IMG/VR virus record: IMGVR_UViG_3300028048_003161
Source of the DNA: a virus
Taxonomy: Duplodnaviria; Caudoviricetes
DNA: 64,000 bases
Direction: 5' to 3' (one strand)
How positions within the stretch are numbered: the stretch's first letter is position 1; the number at the start of each line of letters is the position of its first letter. Position numbers and translations under genes: made by a program. The notes under the pieces are model-generated. The model saw nothing but the letters and a program-made list of their open reading frames with translations, made no database searches and was not told where the DNA came from. Below, in pieces: positions 14,575 through 64,000 of this stretch.

Positions 14575-15519
14575 ATGAAATTTAGTATTGTCATTGGAAA
14601 TCCTCCTTATAACAAGGGGATGGATATAAATTTCATACAGATAGGATACAAGATCAGTAGAGAGGTTTGTTGCATGATAGTTCCTGCAAAGTGGCAAACA
14701 GCAGATGATGAGTACAGTGGGACAAATTATGCTAACTTTAGAAAAGAAATAGTTCAGCATATGAAAGAAGTGGTATTTTATCCTTGTAGCAAGGATATCT
14801 TCGATATATTACAAGTAGATGGAATTACATACTTCTTATTAGACAAAGAGGTACATGAGAAATGTCTAGTGTCTAACAGATGTAGTGTGTATAAAACACT
14901 AGAAAGTGATGGAATATACAGAGATATAAGAAACAGACAGAGTTTATTAAACTTTGTTGACAATATAATAAATAGACTTGGGCAGTATGAGAAATTTAGG
15001 TTCAATCATATAAGTATGGGCAGCAGGTTCAGAGTTTATATGAACAATAAGGCAGGTGGTGGAGCGTTTGCAAGTGCAGACATAACAGAGGGATGTAAGG
15101 ATAGGGAAACTAGAAAAGTGTTCTTTACAGGTGCAAGTTATATAGAGGACACTTTGGGAATAGATAAGACATGTGGGATTCATAGAGAGAATAGGACAGC
15201 TGAACAGTTAGTTTTTACATCAGACAGTAAGGAAGAATGTGAGAACTTTATAATGTATTTGAATACAAGGTTTGTTCAGATGTTACTTTCTGGAAATCAG
15301 AGTAAACTTAGTTGCATTTTGACAGATGATTGTTTCAGGTTTGTACCTAGCATTGAAAATGAAATTGGTACAGATGGGAAAATAGGGTACCAACATAAGT
15401 GGACTGACGAGGAATTATATGAGAAATATAACATCACAGAGAAAGAACAGAGAGACATTGAAAGTTATGTAAATAGACGTGAGAATTATGGATTGATGAA
15501 AGAGAAAGATGGTGAATAA
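14575..15519 (+). CDS. Eco57I-like N6-adenine DNA methyltransferase, catalytic and TRD half only (no motif I)
   Basis: Starts MKFSIVIGNPPYN; PAKWQ and C-terminal FRFVP...WTDEELY present; lacks the ~140 aa N-terminal part of its paralogs. Confidence 0.8.
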   Translation: MKFSIVIGNPPYNKGMDINFIQIGYKISREVCCMIVPAKWQTADDEYSGTNYANFRKEIVQHMKEVVFYPCSKDIFDILQVDGITYFLLDKEVHEKCLVSNRCSVYKTLESDGIYRDIRNRQSLLNFVDNIINRLGQYEKFRFNHISMGSRFRVYMNNKAGGGAFASADITEGCKDRETRKVFFTGASYIEDTLGIDKTCGIHRENRTAEQLVFTSDSKEECENFIMYLNTRFVQMLLSGNQSKLSCILTDDCFRFVPSIENEIGTDGKIGYQHKWTDEELYEKYNITEKEQRDIESYVNRRENYGLMKEKDGE

Positions 15520-29443: not shown

Positions 29444-30322
29444 ATGAAAGCATCAAATAAAATTTTAGGAGCAGTATTAGCATTAGCTATGACAGTAGGA
29501 ACAGTAAGTGGAGCACCTGTTGCAGGTGATGTACTTGGAGCAGAAACAGTGCAGGCAGCTACAAGAACAAAGAGTGTTACAATTAGTAACGTTAAGAATG
29601 GAAAAGCTACCTTATATACAGGGCAGAGTTTATCATTTAAGACGAACTATAAAGAAAATCAGTTGAAAGTGTCTACATCAGATAAAAGCGTGGTCAGCGT
29701 AAAAGGTATTAAGATCACAGGAGTAAATAAAGGAACTGCAAAGATTACAGTGGCTGTTAAAAGCAATACAAAAGTAAAAAAGACTATTACAGTAAAAGTT
29801 GTGGATAGGTATATTATCAGAAAGGATGATGCAGGTGGTAATGCAGTTACAGAAAAGTATGACAGAAAGACAAAGAAGAGCACATATACAGTAGAAGTAA
29901 AAGGAAAAGACGTATGTAATAATGTTGACATGAATATAAAATATAAGTTTACTTCTAAAGATACACATATGGCAGGTACAGGATTTGCAGGGGAATTAAG
30001 TAATGGTGAAGGTTGTGGTCTTAAATTATACAACATGACAAAAGATGACTCATACAAACAGATTATTGATTTTAACAAGAAATCAGATAAAGAGCTTTAC
30101 AAATATTATGAGCTGACAAAGGCAGAAATCAAGCAGACAAAGTTTACACGTAATAATACAGATGCAGGGTATGTGATGGCATCTGTTGTTCCACATGGCA
30201 AAAACGGACTTGTTAAGGAATGTTTAATCAAAGACAAGGAAACAGGAACATTATATAAATTAGAGTATCGGGGTAGCGAAGATCCGTATGCAGTATATAA
30301 GAGTGTAAAAGTCATAAAGTAA
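29444..30322 (+). CDS. secreted protein with bacterial Ig-like (Big_2) domain
   Basis: Signal peptide ending TVQAA; TSDKSVVSV.GIKITGVNKGTAKITV...ITVKV. Confidence 0.8.
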   Translation: MKASNKILGAVLALAMTVGTVSGAPVAGDVLGAETVQAATRTKSVTISNVKNGKATLYTGQSLSFKTNYKENQLKVSTSDKSVVSVKGIKITGVNKGTAKITVAVKSNTKVKKTITVKVVDRYIIRKDDAGGNAVTEKYDRKTKKSTYTVEVKGKDVCNNVDMNIKYKFTSKDTHMAGTGFAGELSNGEGCGLKLYNMTKDDSYKQIIDFNKKSDKELYKYYELTKAEIKQTKFTRNNTDAGYVMASVVPHGKNGLVKECLIKDKETGTLYKLEYRGSEDPYAVYKSVKVIK

Positions 30323-30355
30323 CAAGCATAAATAACTAAAGATTTAGTTGTTAAC

Positions 30356-30392
30356 AGAGGACTCAGGTGTTTGGACACTTGGGTCCTTTTTG
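30356..30392 (+). terminator. rho-independent terminator
   Basis: GAGGACTCAGGTGT-TTGG-ACACTTGGGTCCTTTTT. Confidence 0.75.
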
Positions 30393-30468
30393 TGTACATA
30401 AATTTCTACATGAATTTAATTAAAATTGAAATTTTATATTTTTAATAATTTATAAGAGGTAATAGAAG

Positions 30469-32213
30469 ATGAGCATGTTATTAAGAGGACAAGACAGTAT
30501 TGATGAAGTTTTGAGGCTATCTAAAGATCATGATAGCATTGAAAAACTTAATGAGACACAAGAAAGTGAAGATAACATTGGGTACACAAAAGGAAAAGAA
30601 CTGGAAAATTCTGGAAATGAGGAGTCAGAGTTAACAGACAATAAAGAAAAGGCAAAAGGCAGTGAGTCAGCTGAAAATAACATTGAAGAAGAAAACAAAC
30701 AGGAGGATAAGAGTAAATCATTAGGGGGTTTAATTAAACGCGGAGCAGAAGCATTAGCAACACTAGGATTAATAGCAGTCACAGAAAAGCAGATAGAAGA
30801 GACACATCAATTGAGAGTCTTTGCAACTTGTACATGTAAAGGTTCTTGCGGTAATAATTGTAAAGGTTGCAGTGGTAGTTGTAAAGATAGTTGTGTTTCA
30901 GGTTGTACAGGAAGTTGCAAAGGTGACTGTAATACAACATGTCATGGTGGCTGTAAAAATGGGTGTCATACAAGTTGTAATGGCGGTTGTAAGGGTGGTT
31001 GTAATAAGTTATGTAAAGGCGGATGTAAGACGTCATGTAAAGATGGATGTGCAAATGCATGTGGTGGGTGCAAAGGTGGTTGTGCACATGACTGTGCTAA
31101 TTGTAAAGATAGTTGTAAGGGTGGTTGTATACATGGTTGTGGTGGTGATTGCAAAGGTTCATGCAAGGAAGGATGTAAAGGTTCATGCAAAGGCAGTTGC
31201 AAAGGTGAGTGTAAAGATGGCTGCAAGGGAGATTGTAAGGGCAGTTGCAATACTGGATGCAAGGGAGATTGTAAGGGCAATTGCAAAGGAAGTTGCAACA
31301 CCGGCTGTGATAGTTCATGCAAGGGAGGTTGCAAGACAGGTTGTAACACTTCATGTACAGGCAGTTGTAGTGGCGGTTGTAATACTTCATGTTCAGGAGG
31401 ATGTGATGGCTATTGTGGAGGTTCTTGCAGTAGTTCCTGTGGTGGAGACTGTTCAGGAAGTTGTGGATCCTGTGACTCAGGATGCTACAGTTCTTGCAAG
31501 ACAGGCTGTTATCAAGGATGCACAGGAAGTTGTGGACAGGGATGTGCAAGTGGATGTGATAGTACATGCACAGGATCCTGTGACACTAGTTGTAATACTT
31601 CTTGCAATACAAGTTGTACTGGATCATGTGGTAGTGGGTGTGAAAGCACTTGTGAAGGATCATGTAAAGGACAATGTGACACAGATTGTAATGGATGTAC
31701 AGGAACTTGTAATGGTAGTGCAGCAAGTACTTGTGGTGAGAGCTGTGAAGGTGGCTGTAAGACAACATGTAATACAAGTTGCACGGGGGCATGCACAACT
31801 AGTTGCAGTGGAGAAAGTAGTGGATCAGACACAGGTTGTAATGGATCATGTAAGGCAGAATGTACAGGCTGTACAACTACTTGTGGAGCAGATTGCTCAA
31901 GTGGATGCAACACAAGTTGTTCAAGTAGTTGCAGTAACGGATGTAAAGGCAAATGCACAGATTCCTGTACAGGCAGTTGCATAGGACAATGTTAGGTACT
32001 TGTATAGGCACATGTAATACAGGATGTATGACAGGATGTAAGACAGGTTGTAAAGAGGCATGTGCAGGAACTTGTTTAGGTGGATGCACCGGTTCATGTA
32101 AGATGACAGCCCAAAGTACAACACCTGGTGGAGGAAATGGTGGGACAGTTGTGCCTGGTGAACAACCTGGAAGCACTAACAGAGATAGAATACATACAGT
32201 AATAGTAAATTAA
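30469..32213 (+). CDS. giant Cys-x-x-x repeat protein, candidate radical-SAM RiPP target (frameshift at 31992)
   Basis: About 118 aa leader, then ~390 aa with Cys mostly every fourth residue; one extra T (TGT TTA GGT) continues the repeat into the 31953..32213 frame. Confidence 0.8.
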
Positions 32214-32229
32214 ACAAAGTGTTTATAAG

Positions 32230-32265
32230 TAGGACATGTCATATAAAAGGCATGTCCTATTTTTA
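32230..32265 (+). terminator. rho-independent terminator
   Basis: TAGGACATGTC-ATATAAAA-GGCATGTCCTATTTTT. Confidence 0.8.
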
Positions 32266-32322
32266 TGCATAGAAGTATAAAAAGAGAATTTTTATTTTTA
32301 ATTAAAGTTGGGAGGAATAAGC

Positions 32323-33662
32323 ATGTCTGATGTAATTGAGCAGTTATATGGAGATAGGGTACCTGGTACAAATATAGTGTTTACACCTGAAAATGTTGTA
32401 GAGGAAATGATGAGTAGACTTCCTGAAGATTTCTGGACACCTGACAAAAGAATATTGGACATATGCAGCAAGTCAGGTAGATTTCTGAAATATGCATTTA
32501 ACAAATTATATAAATCACCTTATTTAAGTGAAATGACACCTAATGAGAGAAAGAGGCATATAATTGAAAATCAGTTGTTTGGACTGTCAAATGACTTTAC
32601 ATGTCTAGTTTTGGCAGAAACAACACTATATGGTTTTGCACAGTATGGAAAAAGAAACATTAAGCTTGTATCAAATTTAGAGGCAGTAGTAAAAAGAGTA
32701 GATAGACAGAGTGAACTTGGAAAGGAGACAGGTTTTGATATGCATTTCGACTTAGTAATTGGAAATCCCCCTTATAATAAGGGCATGGATATTGATTTCA
32801 TAGATCTTGGCTATGAATTAAGTAAACAGTATACAGTGATGATAGTGCCTGCAAAGTGGCAAACAGCAGATGCAAATCAGAGGATCAGTAGTAAAATGAG
32901 TTATGGACAGTTCAGAGAGAAGCTAGTCCCTCATATGAAATATGTATGTTTTTACCCTGACTGCTTAGACGTTTTTGGTATTCAAGAGCAGTCTGGGGTT
33001 AGCTGGTTTATTTTAGATAAGAGCAATACATATGAGGATAGTTGCACAGTAGAAAATAAGTGTAACTTACAGAAATATGCTAATGGCATTGAGAAAAGAG
33101 ATATAACTCACAGACAAACCTTATGGAACATAGGAAATAAAATAATTGAGCACTTAAATAGGGGGGGCAGTACAAATCATATGAGTTTAGTCCTATAGAA
33201 AATAGAAAAGCATACACACTTAACATGAATACACAAATGGCACTTGGTACATGTTCATCTGGTGCATGGGATTTCGACATGGGTGGAATAAAGAAAAGCT
33301 TTATAGGCAAAGGTGGAGTATTGTTTAATCAGAGTGGACAATTGAATCTAACAAATAAAGCACGCTTATTAAGAGGGGTTGAAAAGTCAGGCATAAGTGC
33401 ATCAAAAGATGTCTTTACTTCTGATGACATAGACGAGTGTAAATCTTTTTATACATGGATAAATAGCAAATTTACAAGGTTTTTTATACTGATCAACATT
33501 AGTTCATTAACAATTTTAAATGACAACACATTCAGGTTTGTCCCTTGTCCTCCTCATAATTCCTTTGATCACCTGTATACAGATAAGGAGCTGTATGATT
33601 GGTTTAACCTACCAGAGGAATATAGGGAAGTCATAGATAGTATCCTACGAGACCGTAAATAA
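32323..33662 (+). CDS. Eco57I-like N6-adenine DNA methyltransferase, frameshifted in a G7 tract (33161-33167)
   Basis: VFTP (motif X), ILDICSKSGRF (motif I), VIGNPPY (motif IV); G8 would join the TRD ORF ending FRFVP...YTDKELY. Confidence 0.85.
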
Positions 33663-39980: not shown

Positions 39981-41551
39981 ATGCTAGCAACTCATAGAGT
40001 GAGAGACAATAATAAAACAATTGGGTTTATAGTGAATGGAGTGTTTGCATCAAATATAACCATTAGACAGAATATAGGGCTGATTGACAATTTAAAAATC
40101 ACTAAGAATGGAGTAATCAAGGCAAAAAGAGATTACCCGAAGTTACTTATAGGGACAGTGTAATAAGGAGTCTGTACAATAAACTAATGAAGAATAATCC
40201 TTTTGTAAGAGATATTCAAAAGGACTTAACGCGCTGGAAACAAGACCCTGAGCATGGAATTTTACAGTTAGAGGGAGCAAGACAAATAGGCAAAACAACA
40301 GAAATATTGAAATTTGCATACAGAAATTATAAGTATGTTATCTATGTAAATTTAGCTAGTGACATGTATAAGTTTCAAAAAGCATGCGAGCAGGACATTA
40401 ATTACTTTACAATGCTTGACTATACAGAAAGAGCACATTTACCAGGGTATGTTGACAATAGGGATACAATACTAATTATTGATGAGATTCAAGAGAATAT
40501 GGAAATGTATAACAACATTAGAACATTTGCAAATAATCTAAATTGTGAAATCGTAGTAACAGGAAGTTACTTGGGCAGATTGTTAGCTGGGCTAAAGAAA
40601 CCAGATGAGGACACAGATAAAAAGGCATTTATACCTACTGGAATAGACCTATTAAATATGTATCCTTTATCATTTGCAGAGTTTTGCAGAGTTTTTAATG
40701 CAGAGGACACATTAATGAGCATAAGTTTATATGGAGAGTCATCTGACAGGAAATATAAGAAACTTGATAAGCTGTATGATATATACAGACAAATAGGGGG
40801 TTATCCAGCAGTTATAAAAGAATATATTAAGACACAGGATATAAGTGCATGTCATATGAGAATTGGAAACTTACTTGAATTATTCAAGGCAGAGTCTAGA
40901 GAATATTTTCATGATGAGGTGGAGATAGAAATATTTGACATGGTATATGATTATACACTTTATGAAATGTGTTCAAATCATGCTGGAACAGCTAAGAGGA
41001 CCATAAAAGATGTGACAAGAATAGTAGAAGATAAAACAAAAGGCATGACATCAACTAGGGAGTTGAGAAATGCAATCACTTGGCTAAGGTATTCGGGTAT
41101 ATTGGGTACTTGTATATTGGCAGAAAATGGAGAGACATCATTCTCTACAGTAAAAAAGTTTTACTTTTTTGATTGTGGCGTTACATCTTATTTGGCTAAG
41201 AGAGCAAATATAGATGCTAGCAGTCTAGATGGAATAATTACAGAGACATTTGCATTTGATGAGTTGATAAGATTATACAGTAAAAATACAAAAGATCCAA
41301 AAGTTAGACCTTATTTGTACTATGGTAGACTTGGTAATTACGAATTAGACTTTTTGGTTTGCAGTACAGACAATAAGAAGTATGGAATAGAAATTAAAAC
41401 TAATACAGGAGATCCTAAATCTCTAAAGCAGTTTTTGAATAAAAGGCTTGTAGATAAGGGGATAGTTGCAAAAAGAACAAAGGGTGGGCACTCTGAAAAA
41501 TTGGATACAATACCAATATACACAGTTGGTTGCAGATTTCCTTATAAATAA
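39981..41551 (+). CDS. AAA_14 ATPase with DUF4143 and PD-(D/E)xK-like C-terminus; N-terminal tag split off by a frameshift in A5 at 40124-40128
   Basis: GARQIGKT (Walker A), ILIIDEIQ (Walker B), VTGS, PLSFAEF, GGYP, YFFDCG, ELDF...IEIK. Confidence 0.85.
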
Positions 41552-48639: not shown

Positions 48640-51600
48640 AAGGAAATGACTTATGGATTAAATTGTGTGGACATCCAGTAGTATAGATAATATGATAAAT
48701 TGGTATGTTATTAGACAATGAAGGCTCTAGTTTTGTAATGTAATAAACAATAAGAAAAAGAGAATGACATATGAAAGTTTAGTTGTATGTGTGTTAGGAT
48801 AAATTGGTGTGTTATTGGACAATAAAAGGTCTAGTTTTGTAATGTGAGTGACAATGAGAGAGTGGAGTATAGACAGATAGGAAATAAAAAGAATTATGAG
48901 TGAGATTATGTGGACATTTAGGTGTTTGTGTATTATGATAAATTGGGTTGTTATTGGACAATGAGAGGTCTAGTTTTATGGAATAAATGACAATAAGAAA
49001 AAGAGGTATAGACAGGTAGAAAAGGTTATGAATAATAGTAGTTTAGATAGAACTTTTATAAAATAGTAATAGGCATTTAGATGTGAATAATAAGAGAAAA
49101 AGTGCGCTTATTGGTCTTTTGTTGATCAGGTTTTGTGAATAAAATCACATGCAGTATTAAGGGATAGATAAGTAATGATTTGGTGTAATAACATTCGATA
49201 GGATAAAAGAGATTGAAAGTATATTGAATAGACAATTTGATAAGTGAGAGTTGTCTTTAGTTAAAAGAGAATTGACCTTTGATTGTGATATAGACAATTA
49301 AGAAAGAATAGGAGATTGAATTATGTGGAATAGACATTGGTTTTAATATATGAAATAAAATAATGAAGTATATGGACTTAGGTGTTTTGGTTGATATGCT
49401 TTGATTTTGGTATTAGGTATTTGTGGTTTATTGGATCAGACAATGATTTTGTGTGTAGACTATGTGTGTGGACAATTAGAAAAATGGAAGTAACTTTTGG
49501 TTAAAAAATAAGTTGCTTTTATTAGGAAATAAAGTATAAAATAGTTAATGAGAGGAACAATTGTGTTGTGTTATATACAATTGTTTTTTATTGCTAAGAG
49601 ATAAAGAAAATTAGATAACCAGTGACTAAATTGTTGAGGTGTTGAATATGTGTGAATTAGGCACTGATAGGTTTGGGAGTGACTTTTGTTAAAATAGATA
49701 GAGATAGGAAAGAAGGATAATAGACTTTTATTTTGATTAAGTAAGATAAAGGAAAAGAGTGGATGGCTTTGATTATGATTGAAAGAGATAATGAAAAGGG
49801 TAGATGGACATTTATTAGAATTGAAGGAGATAAGGGAAAAGATAGAATGGCTTTGGTTATGATTGAAAGAAATATAAGAAAAATTGAAAGAGATATGATA
49901 AAAGAGTGAAGGACTTTTGTGTTGTAATATGGAGTTAGAAATGTTTGGTTTATATTTGGAATAAATTGTAAAGGACTTTGATTGAAAGATAATAGGACTT
50001 TGACTAAAAGAGAAAGAGATAAGAGGACTTTGACTAAAAGAGAAAGAGATATAAGAAAAGAGAGAGGATCTTTGATTAAAATTGAAGTGTTTTGTGTTTA
50101 ATTGAAACTACTTTTGAAAATTGAAATTGGTTTTGAATGAAAGATAATAGGTCTTTTGATAAATGAAAAGGACTTTTTGGAATTTGAAAGAGAAATTGGA
50201 ATTGGTTCAGGACGTTTTATTTTTGAAAATGATTAGGAAATAGACATTGTTTTTATTAAAGTTAGAAAAATATTTAATAATAAAATTTGTGGTATGTTAT
50301 AGGATTTTGAATTGGTTGGGAGATATGTTCCAGATTTAAAATTTAAGGGATTTAAGGGATTTTTGGTGGATTTTGATATAAATGTATGGGTGGGGGATAT
50401 TGGTTGAAACGTGAGTATAACAAGAAATTTTTATTTTATTTTAGTTAAAAAATTAGTTAATTTTGTTATGTAATTTGAAAAATGAACGACGTTTTGATTT
50501 TTGTTGTAGGTCTTGATTAAAAAATTGAATGTGCTTTTTGTAAAAATTGAAAGAGAATTTGAAAAATGAATTAGACTTTTGTTTTGTGAATTGATGTTTT
50601 GGAGAAAGTGAAAGAGATTGAAATAAAATGGAAAGACTTTGATTAAAAGTGAAAGAGATTGAAATAAAATGAAAAGACTTATGTTAAGTGAGGTAGTTGT
50701 TTTGATTTGTGGAATTAGACTTTTGTGGAAGTGATAGGTGTTGAAATGTTGAATAGTTAGTCTTTTATTAAAAGTGGTGGAGATTGAAAGAAAATGTGAT
50801 AGACTTTGGTTAATAAGTGATTGTGTTGGAATATATGGGATAGGTCAATGATTGTTTATGGTGAGTGTTGGGAAAATATGAATTGGACTTTTGTATTAAA
50901 GATAGGAGATTGAAATGATTGTTAATGGACTTTTGTATTAAAGATATGTACAATTAGTTAATGAGATAGTGTTTAAAGGTAGGTGGATAGATCAATGGTG
51001 TTTGTGATAGGATTGTTAGAATAATGGTATTGACCTTAGTGTTTTGATATGAGGGCTTTTGGTATTTTGATAGGTATTGAAAATAGTATAGGGTAGACAA
51101 TAGGGAAGTGGTAAAGAGATTGAAGTTGGGTGGGAATAGACAATAGGAAAGTGAATGGTTTGGTGGTTTGTTTAAGTGGACAATTGAAATGAAAGTAAGG
51201 TATGAGAGTTAGTGTGAATAGACAATTAAATTATGATAAGGAGTTTTAATAAAATAATAAGTTACTTTGATTAGATATGTATGGTGTTTTAGAAAAGAGT
51301 AATAGACAATAGCAAGTGTGATAAAGTAGGTGTGTGGACAATGAGTAAAAATTGAGAGAGATAAAAAAATTGATAGATAGACAATGTGGAAATAGTGATA
51401 TACCTTGTGATAGTTGATAAGTGTTTTAAAAAGATAGAATAGGCAATGAATATGGTTGATAGATTGTTGTGGTGTTTGAGGTAGACAATAACTTTTGTGA
51501 TAGTCGACTTTTATATGAATTGTGGGATATGAGAAATAAAATAAATAGCAATTATATTTGTATTTAGACAATTGAAAATATAGATAGATTTGATAGTAAT

Positions 51601-55694: not shown

Positions 55695-57971
55695 ATGAGT
55701 GAGTATCTGGACAAATTGGAACAAGAGTTGAGGTCAGAGGGCGTTGGGGCATCTCTGACATCTTCTAGTGCATGTGTATCTCCAAGTGACTTTGATTTAA
55801 GAACTATACTTGAGATTGAACAGATTACAGGGTTTAAGTATAGTGACGAGCAGAAAGAAATTCTTAAGTACAGAGGTAATGCTTGTATTCTTGCATGTGC
55901 AGGTAGTGGAAAGACAAGTACAACAGTACACTTGATTGCAAAGAGAATCAAGACAGGAGAGATTAAAGATGTCAACAAGTTGGTTTATGCAACTTATAGT
56001 AAAGCTGGCAAAGATGAAATGAAAGATAGACTTGACAAGTTACTCAAGCAGCTTGGAGTAAATAAGCAAGTCAAGGTTTGTACATTACACTCTTTCTTTT
56101 TGAATATATTAAGACTCTTTGGTGTTACAGCAGACATTATCAAAGATGGGGATAGACGCAGAATGATTTTAGAGTCATGTAAAGATGCAGGGTTTATTCC
56201 TAAGGATGATGAATTGATGACAGTTGATAATTTAATTTCATATCAGATTAACTGCTTGTTATCAGATAGGAAAGCCATTGAATGTCCTGTGAATACACTT
56301 GAAGATTTGACTCTTGAGCAGTATTCTGCTATTAGGGCAGGGTATACTAATAGGAAAACAGCAGCTAAGTTAATTGATTATGATGATATGCAAACTTATC
56401 TCTACTTGTGGGTGGTCAAGTTTGCAAAAAGTCCTAACCCTCAACAAAGTGAGACAGCACGTCAGATTAGACAGTATTGTCAGGCAATGTGGCATGACTT
56501 CTACATTGATGAGGCTCAGGACGTCAGTAAGATTCAATTTGCTATACTTAAGGGATTGATTACTAATCCTGAAGAACCTAATAAGTTGGTTGTGAATTTG
56601 ACACTGATTGGTGATGATGATCAGTGTATTTATGCATGGAGAGGTAGTGACCCGAGTATTATTTTAACAGCAGCACCTATGTTCAATATGAGAAACTTTG
56701 TGTTAAGTACAAACTACAGGTGTAAGAGTGAGATTGTCAATTATGCAGCTACAGGCATTGTGTTTAATGACAAGAGGTTTAATAAGGGGATGTCAGCTCA
56801 TGAAGAGGGTGGACAGGTCAAAATTGCAGTATCACGTAGAAAAGATTTGTGTTCATTAAGTATTGTAGGGCTTAACCAGATTAAGAAATGGATTGAGCAG
56901 GGAGATAAAGAATCAGACATTGCAGTACTGGTAAGAAATAACTTTCAAGCATCTATTTTGAGTAATATGTTGCTTAGGGAAGGAATATATTGTGCATGTA
57001 CAGAGGAATCTAAACTTACAAAGAGTAGTATGTATGCAGATATTAAGATGCTGATTGAAATGTGCGAGCCTTGTTGGAAAACAGCAGTATTGAGCAATAT
57101 GCTTTGGAAAATGTGTAAGTACATGAATACTGGTACAGCTAGGGCAATTGCTAACTTTCAGGATTCAAGTGCATTGAGCATTAAAGATGCTCTTGGTTGG
57201 CTAATTAAAGAGTTTATTGACACTTCAATTCAGTTTAATGCAAAGGTCACAGTTAGCCTGCAGTCAAAAGAGAAAATGAGATACTACATTAACAGAATGA
57301 TGAATGACACTAAGGCTGATATGATTGCATTATACAATGCATTATGCTGTGAGGATAAGGCACAGTGTTTAAGAACCTTAACTACATTCTATTTAACTTC
57401 AACAGGTTTCTTGTACAAAACAGAGGATAAACAGAGGTCAATAACTGGACTAGTTGTGTATATTAACAACCTTGTGAAAAAAGATGGGTTTGATAACATG
57501 AAAGACTTCTTGAGAGTGACCGAGCAGTATGAATCAGGTAGAATGGGTATTATTGGAGATAAATTGACCATTTCAACAATTCACAGTGCAAAGGGTAGAG
57601 AGTGGAAAGACGTGATCATGCTTGCATGTGATAATGTGAGTCAACCATCATTTGATGGAATAGTCAAGATGATAGATGACGGTGTACCTGTTGCTGATAT
57701 ATGTGACAGATTGGATGAGGATAGACGTCTGTTCTATGTAGGTAATACAAGAGCAAAAGAAAACCTGCTTATTGTTACTTATGTAGAGCCTAGTGTATTT
57801 ATTCTTGAAGCATTAGGTTTATTCAAGGCAAAAGATGGATTTTCAAACAACAGTAAAATTGTTGAATTAGCAAGTGCAGGAGAGGGGCTTGGACCTTTCA
57901 AGGGTGTTGCCGACGACCTGTTATTAAAGAAAGACAGTAAGTATTTTTATGAGATAGACTGGCAGAAATAG
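55695..57971 (+). CDS. UvrD/PcrA/Rep superfamily-1 DNA helicase
   Basis: ACAGSGKT, IDEAQD, IGDDDQCIYAWRGS, LSTNYR, STIHSAKGREW, EDRRLFYVGNTRAK. Confidence 0.95.
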   Translation: MSEYLDKLEQELRSEGVGASLTSSSACVSPSDFDLRTILEIEQITGFKYSDEQKEILKYRGNACILACAGSGKTSTTVHLIAKRIKTGEIKDVNKLVYATYSKAGKDEMKDRLDKLLKQLGVNKQVKVCTLHSFFLNILRLFGVTADIIKDGDRRRMILESCKDAGFIPKDDELMTVDNLISYQINCLLSDRKAIECPVNTLEDLTLEQYSAIRAGYTNRKTAAKLIDYDDMQTYLYLWVVKFAKSPNPQQSETARQIRQYCQAMWHDFYIDEAQDVSKIQFAILKGLITNPEEPNKLVVNLTLIGDDDQCIYAWRGSDPSIILTAAPMFNMRNFVLSTNYRCKSEIVNYAATGIVFNDKRFNKGMSAHEEGGQVKIAVSRRKDLCSLSIVGLNQIKKWIEQGDKESDIAVLVRNNFQASILSNMLLREGIYCACTEESKLTKSSMYADIKMLIEMCEPCWKTAVLSNMLWKMCKYMNTGTARAIANFQDSSALSIKDALGWLIKEFIDTSIQFNAKVTVSLQSKEKMRYYINRMMNDTKADMIALYNALCCEDKAQCLRTLTTFYLTSTGFLYKTEDKQRSITGLVVYINNLVKKDGFDNMKDFLRVTEQYESGRMGIIGDKLTISTIHSAKGREWKDVIMLACDNVSQPSFDGIVKMIDDGVPVADICDRLDEDRRLFYVGNTRAKENLLIVTYVEPSVFILEALGLFKAKDGFSNNSKIVELASAGEGLGPFKGVADDLLLKKDSKYFYEIDWQK

Positions 57972-62684: not shown

Positions 62685-64000
62685 ATGTTATTAGGTAATG
62701 ATTATAGGAATGATGCTGTAGAAAAATTGTATGGAGACAGAATCGGAGATAGTTCAATCATCTTTACTCCTTGGGATACAGTAGAAAATATGTTAGATCT
62801 AATACCAGAGGACTTCTGGACACCTGATGTTACTATATTAGATATGTACTGTAAGTCAGGTAGGTTTCTTGTTGGGGCATTTAGAAAATTATATAATTCA
62901 CCTTATTTGGCATACTTGTCAGAGAGCGAGAGAACACTACATATCTTAAATAAGCAGTTATTCGGTTTGTGTGCTGACATGACATGTATGTTATTGTCAG
63001 AGGCTAATTTATATGGTCATGCTCAATATGGTAAAAAGCATATTAAATTAGTTGACACATATGATTATAACAGTGTAGTTAAGCAAAGAAAAGATGGTAT
63101 TATCAATAGGACATTAGAAGGGAAGTTTGGACAAATGAAGTTTGATCTGGTCATTGGAAATCCTCCATACAATAATGATGCATACATAGATTTCGTAGAG
63201 ATTGGACATAAATTAGCCACACAGTATAGCTGTTGGGTAACACCTGCAAAATGGCAAGCCAAAGCAGATAAAAAGAACGACATGTTCAGAAAAGCAATAG
63301 TGCCTTATATGAGTAAGATACTATTTTATAAGGACAGTCATGATATATTCAGCATACAAGAATGGGGTGGCATATCATACTATTTAGTAGATAAGAGTCA
63401 AAAAAGTAATAAAGTACAGATAAGGACAACCTGTAATAGTAATGATAATCTTAATTCAAGCTTTGAAGAACATGATGAGTTAAGTCCTGTACTATACAAT
63501 AGAAAAATTTTGCAACTAATTGGCAAAGTTGGTACACTTGGGGAAGGATTTAAGCAGTCGTTGTATGTAAAAAATACAGATCATGGGGAGAGTTGCATCG
63601 CTGGTACACTTGGGTTTAAACGACAGACATTTGTACATGAACAGGACAGAGGTGAATCTGCTATGAACAGTAACTATGTGGAGATAATGCAGGGAGATCA
63701 AGTATGTGGATACAAAAATAAAAAAGATTTATATACTCAATTGAACATTGATAAATGGAAGTGCATATGTTCAATTATGCCTGGTGCAGTATCACAGTTT
63801 GATCAAAACGGTCAAGTGCTGGGCATGATTAAGATAAGCATTATTGGACCTAATCAAGTACCTAAGGGCAGTTTTCCTGTGTTAAAATATTTTGACAGTA
63901 AGGAAGAATGCTATTCATTTGTGAGTTATTGTAATACAAGGTTAGTTAGTTTTCTGTTCTATTTGGGTGTATGCGGAACAACCTTAACTAAAGAGTTCTT
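62685..64000 (+). CDS. Eco57I-like N6-adenine DNA methyltransferase (runs off the window end; not in the ORF track)
   Basis: My translation: MLLGNDY...LYGDRI...IFTP...PEDFWTPD...ILDMYCKSGRF...MKFDLVIGNPPYN...PAKWQ...FDSKEECYSFVSYCNTR. Confidence 0.9.
   Translation, partial: MLLGNDYRNDAVEKLYGDRIGDSSIIFTPWDTVENMLDLIPEDFWTPDVTILDMYCKSGRFLVGAFRKLYNSPYLAYLSESERTLHILNKQLFGLCADMTCMLLSEANLYGHAQYGKKHIKLVDTYDYNSVVKQRKDGIINRTLEGKFGQMKFDLVIGNPPYNNDAYIDFVEIGHKLATQYSCWVTPAKWQAKADKKNDMFRKAIVPYMSKILFYKDSHDIFSIQEWGGISYYLVDKSQKSNKVQIRTTCNSNDNLNSSFEEHDELSPVLYNRKILQLIGKVGTLGEGFKQSLYVKNTDHGESCIAGTLGFKRQTFVHEQDRGESAMNSNYVEIMQGDQVCGYKNKKDLYTQLNIDKWKCICSIMPGAVSQFDQNGQVLGMIKISIIGPNQVPKGSFPVLKYFDSKEECYSFVSYCNTRLVSFLFYLGVCGTTLTKEF

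Follow-up and report, generated by a model that had tools for sequence, protein, structure and literature searches.

The window analysed here, a stretch of 64,000 nucleotides, encodes on its plus strand a protein that consists of an acidic, Cys-free leader followed by a long ladder of cysteines, most of them four residues apart. This architecture of leader and ladder only, with no globular domain, is distinctive: the protein is an orphan, nearly pure-ladder variant of the CXXX-repeat class, its leader defines a new family, and the gene belongs to a very small family of gut Lachnospiraceae and their mobile elements. The best explanation, which we advance tentatively, is that the product may be a leader-guided substrate, thioether cross-linked in trans by an enzyme of the TIGR04115 type. 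This reading draws on the PF27846 matches of the ladder's relatives, on the ladder statistics and the match of its units to those of ladders adjacent to TIGR04115 enzymes, on purifying selection, on conservation of the leader and on the precedent of the CrpA/CrpC system.

Before the one-base deletion, the product comprised a 120-aa leader, a ladder of ~460 aa holding 106 Cys, and a short tail of Gly and Pro; the window copy makes at best a 508-aa form containing the leader and 97 Cys. In the proposed scheme, conserved motifs in the leader would recruit a TIGR04115-type radical-SAM/SPASM maturase encoded elsewhere and acting in trans, and this enzyme would turn many of the ladder Cys into intramolecular thioether bridges of the ranthionine or sactionine type. 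Cross-linking of this kind could yield a rigid rod or sheet that resists proteases, and the product may be exported to act at the cell surface alongside the secreted Ig-like protein of the upstream gene. The features of the locus are as follows.

29444-30322, plus strand: gene for a secreted 292-aa protein with a signal peptide, a Big_2-like Ig domain and a beta-rich C-terminal domain (AF2 model, pLDDT 83; Foldseek)
30354-30393, plus strand: terminator hairpin with T-run, separating the ladder gene from the gene upstream (-21.9 kcal/mol, z -4.8)
30454-30460, plus strand: ribosome-binding site (RBS) AAGAGGT, 8 nt before the ATG; AGAGGTA is invariant across three aligned loci
30469-30828, plus strand: leader-like region, residues 1-120 (HMMER relatives and alignment)
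30829-31992, plus strand: Cys-x-x-x ladder, residues 121-508, 97 Cys (spacing statistics; dN/dS against the related locus L014)
31992-31995, plus strand: lesion, one T missing relative to L014 (TGTTTAGG -> TGTTAGG; pairwise DNA alignment), which makes a TAG stop at 31993-31995
31992-32213, plus strand: last 73 aa of the protein, displaced into the -1 frame; the 9 Cys here all stand four residues apart and lead to a tail of Gly, Pro and Thr, closed by a TAA stop
32227-32268, plus strand: terminator hairpin (32227-32262) and T-run (-20.2 kcal/mol, z -6.7)

The cysteine ladder and its leader

Consistent with the first-pass annotation, which had described about 100 Cys at mostly four-residue spacing, the open reading frame (ORF) at 30469-31995 (plus strand, 508 codons, with the RBS AAGAGGT in place) encodes 97 Cys, or 106 when the displaced tail is included. 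The first of these is residue 121 and the last residue 508, at the end of the ORF. A spacing of exactly four residues is found in 87 of the 96 Cys-to-Cys steps, the others being of three (six steps), two (one), 8 (one) and 11 residues (one); with both frames combined, the count is 95 of 104. The ladder unit can be written C-[K/N/T]-[G/T/S]-[S/G/D], and the core is composed mainly of Cys (25%), Gly (22%), Ser (16%), Thr (10%) and Lys (8%), with aromatic and aliphatic residues nearly absent. Lys makes up 33% of position x1; Asp amounts to 7%, 6% and 9% at x1, x2 and x3, respectively, and Glu to at most 2%. The two halves of the ladder differ largely as the annotation had it, the first being rich in Lys (26 residues versus 6) and the second in Ser (40 versus 21) and Thr (27 versus 12), but the Asp enrichment also attributed to the second half is not borne out (9 residues versus 11 in the first).

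At the DNA level the repeat units are only 60-75% alike, with the exception of one 36-nt duplication, indicating that the period of the ladder is held at the protein level; this had been proposed from codon variation between units, and TGT/TGC switches relative to L014 agree with it. ORFs on the opposite strand or off frame over the ladder are taken to be by-products of the repeated codon composition, and selection acts on the plus frame. The gene is bounded by terminators, again as first described, with hairpins and T-runs at 30354-30393 and 32227-32262. The stem of the upstream hairpin is kept in two related loci (L007 and L009), and the downstream terminator sits after the displaced tail, not after the premature stop.

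The leader (residues 1-120) has a net charge of -12 and contains zero Cys. An exhaustive HMMER search of 1.8 billion representative proteins with the first 125 residues returned only six relatives, which together with metagenome loci fall into two lineages, and the leader architecture is conserved between these at ~40% identity. It comprises an invariant start (M-S-x-x-L-R-G-Q-D-S-I), an acidic spacer whose length varies among relatives, a conserved hydrophobic helix (I-(K/M)-R-G-A-E-A-(L/I)-A-x-x-G-x-(I/V)-x-V-T) and, directly before the first Cys, a junction of the form R/K-V/L-x-A (R-V-F-A in the window). Conserved motifs flanking a variable acidic spacer in the N-terminal 120 aa uphold the earlier description of a RiPP-like leader, and, as far as an alignment can indicate, this is the RiPP-leader pattern of a recognition element and a junction. 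Neither a signal peptide nor a twin-arginine motif is present in the N-terminus of the ladder protein; the nearest Tat-like element is K-R-G-A-E-A-L with a 12-residue hydrophobic stretch (residues 89-103), which lacks R-R. The N-termini of the Bacteroidales relatives start with N-R-R-R-F-F-K-K.

A search for the leader in 401 Lachnospiraceae genomes gave no match, and the window and the gene are unmatched in phage, plasmid, viral and metagenome contig sets by DNA and tblastn comparison, the latter being probably blinded by its low-complexity filter. The ladder protein has no Pfam match even at an E value of 10, no sequence relative in the PDB and no usable match in an ESM Atlas feature search. 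An AlphaFold2 model of the 508-aa protein, built from a 6-row alignment, shows no readable fold (pLDDT 33, pTM 0.17).

The frame break and the fate of related copies

The related locus L014 (86% identical DNA) carries one extra T exactly at 31992, beyond which its tail is colinear and in frame; its junction reads C-I-G-Q-C-L-G-T-C-I-G-T-C in a single frame. Since L014 reads through, the window copy has a one-base deletion, and the ancestral protein was 581 aa long with 106 Cys. The one-base correction at 31992 that had been predicted to yield about 580 aa is thus confirmed by a relative, and the indel whose verification had been called for is real with respect to it. A Logan contig (L001) that matches the window with 100% identity along 7,522 nt shows the same break; to judge from this identity it probably represents the same population, and hence does not confirm the break independently. 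Programmed frameshifting at 31992 was considered and rejected, as the site has no slippery heptamer, its local fold has a z of -0.8 against shuffled sequences and the relative simply has an extra T. An alternative genetic code was likewise rejected: the lesions involve TAG (window), TAA (L013) and TGA (L034), and all three codons end ordinary ORFs of the window.

Comparison with L014 over 423 aligned codons yields a dS of 0.65 and a dN of 0.11 (dN/dS 0.17). Cys is conserved at all 101 aligned positions, with 28 TGT/TGC switches, and a 138-aa block is identical in protein sequence despite 23 nucleotide differences, which are silent. Judged from these codon comparisons, the ladder is selected at the protein level and the plus frame is, or until recently was, a genuine gene; by the same measure, the residues between the ladder Cys matter too.

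Every long copy examined carries an inactivating lesion. In addition to the deletion in the window, these comprise a G5 run lengthened by one G in the leader of L014, a TAA stop in the leader of L013, and a TGA stop followed by a frameshift in L034. Four other loci (L009 to L012) have kept the leader and lost the ladder, and copy length across the family scatters from 114 aa (L035) and 126 aa (L007) up to 581 aa. Such damage, absence of ladders and length scatter would be expected of a decaying remnant, that is, a family functional until recently and now being lost, whose window copy is inert; this would be compatible with either a modified or an unmodified ladder. We consider decay quite unlikely. 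The dN/dS value, the full conservation of Cys and the identical 138-aa block point to selection having been strong for most of the divergence, and the window lesion costs the protein only its final 13%, with start codon, RBS, leader and 97 Cys unharmed. No further damage is seen in the displaced tail, so that the lesion is either recent or an assembly error, and short-read assemblies of such repeats are error-prone.

In the four ladderless loci, each from a different Logan run, the leader homologue stops past the conserved helix, and unrelated, GC-richer DNA replaces the ladder. Their 118-aa product is identical in all four runs, indicating that this deletion or replacement allele is widespread. 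Rfam shows nothing at 28-34 kb of the window, nor in L009 and L013.

Relation to radical-SAM maturases and other thioether systems

The assignment of the ladder class to radical-SAM targets, which the first-pass annotation had made from the repeat itself, is supported by Pfam: all 259 of 259 sequence relatives of the ladder carry a precomputed match to PF27846 (tSAM_targ_Cxxx_rpt), often marked weak or faint. Scoring with the TIGRFAM CXXX-repeat models, recommended as a check, remains below the curated cut-offs, with 19.7 bits versus 20 for TIGR04114 (one stretch reported for the 508-aa protein, P0001) and 28.1 bits versus 50 for TIGR04117, against which a short relative (P0127) scores 23.3 bits. 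The accompanying statement that such proteins are usually far shorter does not hold, since many relatives span 500-890 aa and hold 85-92 Cys, and the Bacteroidales targets adjacent to TIGR04115 are themselves ~500-590 aa long. One relative of the ladder has an unbroken run of 83 units. With 97-106 Cys, the window protein is at the top of the range of its relatives and is no outlier.

Ladders directly adjoin TIGR04115 enzymes at four loci (L004, L005, L006 and L043) and in Lachnospiraceae genomes. Against a cut-off of 350, the enzymes score 631 bits at L004 and 429 bits on L005, a contig of 204 kb that looks phage-like, and the Bacteroidales operons (L004 and L043) share the order target, TIGR04115, TIGR04119, TIGR04116, TatA, TatC. 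In these TIGR04115-adjacent ladders, position x2 is G/S/T and x3 is S/T/G, compared with K/N/T, G/T/S and S/G/D at x1, x2 and x3 of the window, so that the unit composition is close except for the Lys-rich x1. For the TIGR04115 enzymes that adjoin related ladders, PapB (NF047865) is the second-best model at 180-188 bits, which suggests Cys-to-side-chain thioether chemistry. In four Lachnospiraceae genomes (G339, G099, G317 and G351; loci L036-L039), TIGR04115 lies in open frames of ~700-725 aa and looks fused to a second domain; these genes adjoin short ladder peptides of 65-193 aa, which are unlike the window leader.

Several observations count against maturation in trans. The CxxxCxxC motif is absent from all other open frames of at least 80 codons in the 64-kb window, in agreement with the earlier statement that no maturase lies there, and no radical-SAM gene is found within ~10 kb of the family members at L007, L008, L034 and L035, whereas canonical targets directly adjoin their maturase. 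TIGR04115 exceeds its cut-off in only 9 of the 401 sampled Lachnospiraceae genomes. The sub-cut-off NCBIfam scores and the lesions in all long copies weigh in the same direction.

The missing neighbour and the rarity of TIGR04115 in the host family also favour the rival explanation that no enzyme modifies the ladder, and that its thiols either bind metal or Fe-S in the manner of metallothioneins or join into a network of disulfides, the protein then having a structural role, or one at the surface or in spores, together with the Ig-like neighbour. The composition of the ladder, with Cys at 25% followed by Gly, Ser, Thr and Lys, resembles that of metallothioneins, and some phage ladder proteins also have no radical-SAM gene in 10 kb, among them the large protein P0098. 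We nevertheless judge an unmodified ladder to be somewhat unlikely. Its strict period of four and its unit composition fit the TIGR04115-adjacent ladders and not the CxC/CxxC clusters of metallothioneins, only 7 of the 96 spacings being of 2 or 3 residues; neither Pfam nor the PDB links the protein to a family of metal binders; and the protein has no signal peptide or twin-arginine motif that would export it to an oxidising compartment.

The reading as a substrate cross-linked in trans has its closest formal parallel in the CXXX-repeat system, which consists of TIGR04114/TIGR04117 targets, TIGR04115, TIGR04119, TIGR04116 and often TatA/TatC, and which is known only from comparative genomics. 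The window protein shares with it the long period-4 Cys runs, the units of small residues, the PF27846 relatives and a size within reach of targets of up to ~500-590 aa. It departs from it in having no adjoining maturase or helpers, no twin-arginine signal, no score above cut-off, no globular domain and 33% Lys at x1, as well as in possessing a leader of its own that is unrelated to the Bacteroidales N-termini.

The only related case known of protein-sized thioether cross-linking, published in 2026, is that of Methanococcus voltae, in which the TIGR04463 radical-SAM/SPASM enzyme CrpC puts ranthionine bridges on the 28.8-kDa CrpA (PMC13692751). A 17-residue repeat carrying C-x-x-Q/D acceptor motifs makes up CrpA, whose N-terminal recognition region is conserved and whose gene lies adjacent to that of its enzyme; a link to metals is suspected (PMC13692751). 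Like CrpA, the window product would be a protein-sized, repeat-built and Cys-rich substrate with a conserved N-terminal region, but its period is four, Asp occupies only 6-9% of each position and no enzyme gene is nearby. Freyrasin, the short ranthipeptide made by PapB, carries six C-x3-D motifs (PMC9413430), unlike the window protein with its 106 Cys and few acidic acceptors. The acidic or amide acceptor that ranthipeptides and CrpA place at a fixed offset (C-x3-D/E, C-x-x-Q/D) is missing in the window ladder.

Phage proteins provide a further comparison. The 508-aa protein matches PHROG 6085 with an E value of 2.6e-17, a similarity restricted to the ladder that may be compositional. Proteins of this group (PHROG 6085; the P0098/P0049 family, 750-890 aa) resemble that of the window in having 85-92 Cys, mostly at period four, and in being carried by mobile elements of gut anaerobes, and two of the phage ladder proteins (P0012 and P0043) adjoin radical-SAM genes. 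They differ in their large N-terminal globular parts and in a ladder that starts with C-R-G-x-C-T-G-L-C.

An extended version of the trans-acting scheme, which we regard as a long shot, would make the ladder an orphan client of a candidate operon, combining a radical-SAM enzyme with a private Tat system, on the same replicon. The N-terminal motif of the leader would recruit the maturase, K-R-G-A-E-A-L with its hydrophobic stretch and R-V-x-A would form a non-canonical export and cleavage signal, and a 460-residue poly-thioether rod would leave the cell fully cross-linked, the recurrent lesions reflecting on/off selection on a costly product. If this were true, few RiPP-like products would be larger, and both its maturation and its export would take place in trans.

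Ladders of Cys placed at every fourth residue occur widely among gut bacteria and the phages of these, and to our knowledge no experimental study has addressed them to date; literature searches on this class (PF27846, TIGR04115) and on Cys-rich thioether proteins of phages turned up nothing relevant. A near-minimal version made of a leader and a pure ladder offers a clean substrate for studying maturase chemistry, the number of bridges per chain and the resulting material, its value being limited by the broken frame of the window copy and by a cognate enzyme that is only putative. As ladders can sit far from any maturase, RiPP mining based on gene neighbourhoods would miss them.

The upstream gene and the carrier element

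Foldseek searches with the model of the upstream secreted protein return only Big_2 and S-layer Ig matches. In the second lineage (L007, L034 and L035), in chromosomal contexts, the gene before the ladder gene encodes a homologue of 32-36% identity, indicating that the pairing of the Ig-like and ladder genes is old. This recurrence beside a secreted Big_2 protein in two lineages is a further point in favour of an unmodified, structural ladder protein. Set against it, the conserved terminator stands between the two genes, and the Ig-like gene is often found without the ladder gene (L015, L026, L028, L029 and L031). The predicted complex of the upstream Ig-like protein with the leader has a score of 0.02, which speaks neither for nor against an interaction.

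The 3' 750 nt of the Ig-like gene (29582-30325 of the window) recur as 81-91% identical DNA in at least eight unrelated contigs (L015 and L026-L032), the flanks of which are unlike the window, so this part of the gene behaves as a small moving or recombining cassette. The closest genomic homologues of the Ig-like protein are found in Lachnospiraceae MAGs, which makes the Lachnospiraceae the likely host family.

The window itself, at 33.7% GC, has all of its genes on one strand, and nearly all of them are ORFans; those recognisable encode several Eco57I-type methyltransferases, a UvrD helicase, an AAA_14 ATPase and an SPFH protein. Phage hallmarks are absent among the window matches, and a PHROGs search of ten large ORFs located between 6 and 25 kb gives no capsid, portal, terminase or tail. 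The window represents an unclassified mobile element of a gut bacterium, possibly a megaplasmid.

A region of ~2.5 kb (48720-51200) has zero ORFs of at least 100 aa on either strand. The AAA_14/DUF4143 ATPase and the UvrD-type helicase are encoded at 40187-41551 and 55695-57971, respectively. Three paralogous methyltransferases of the Eco57I/N6_Mtase type lie on one strand, at 14575-15519, 32308-33198 and 62685-63998. The first of these lacks the N-terminal half, and a separate 145-aa ORF (33225-33662) after the second may represent the C-terminal part of that gene, split off.
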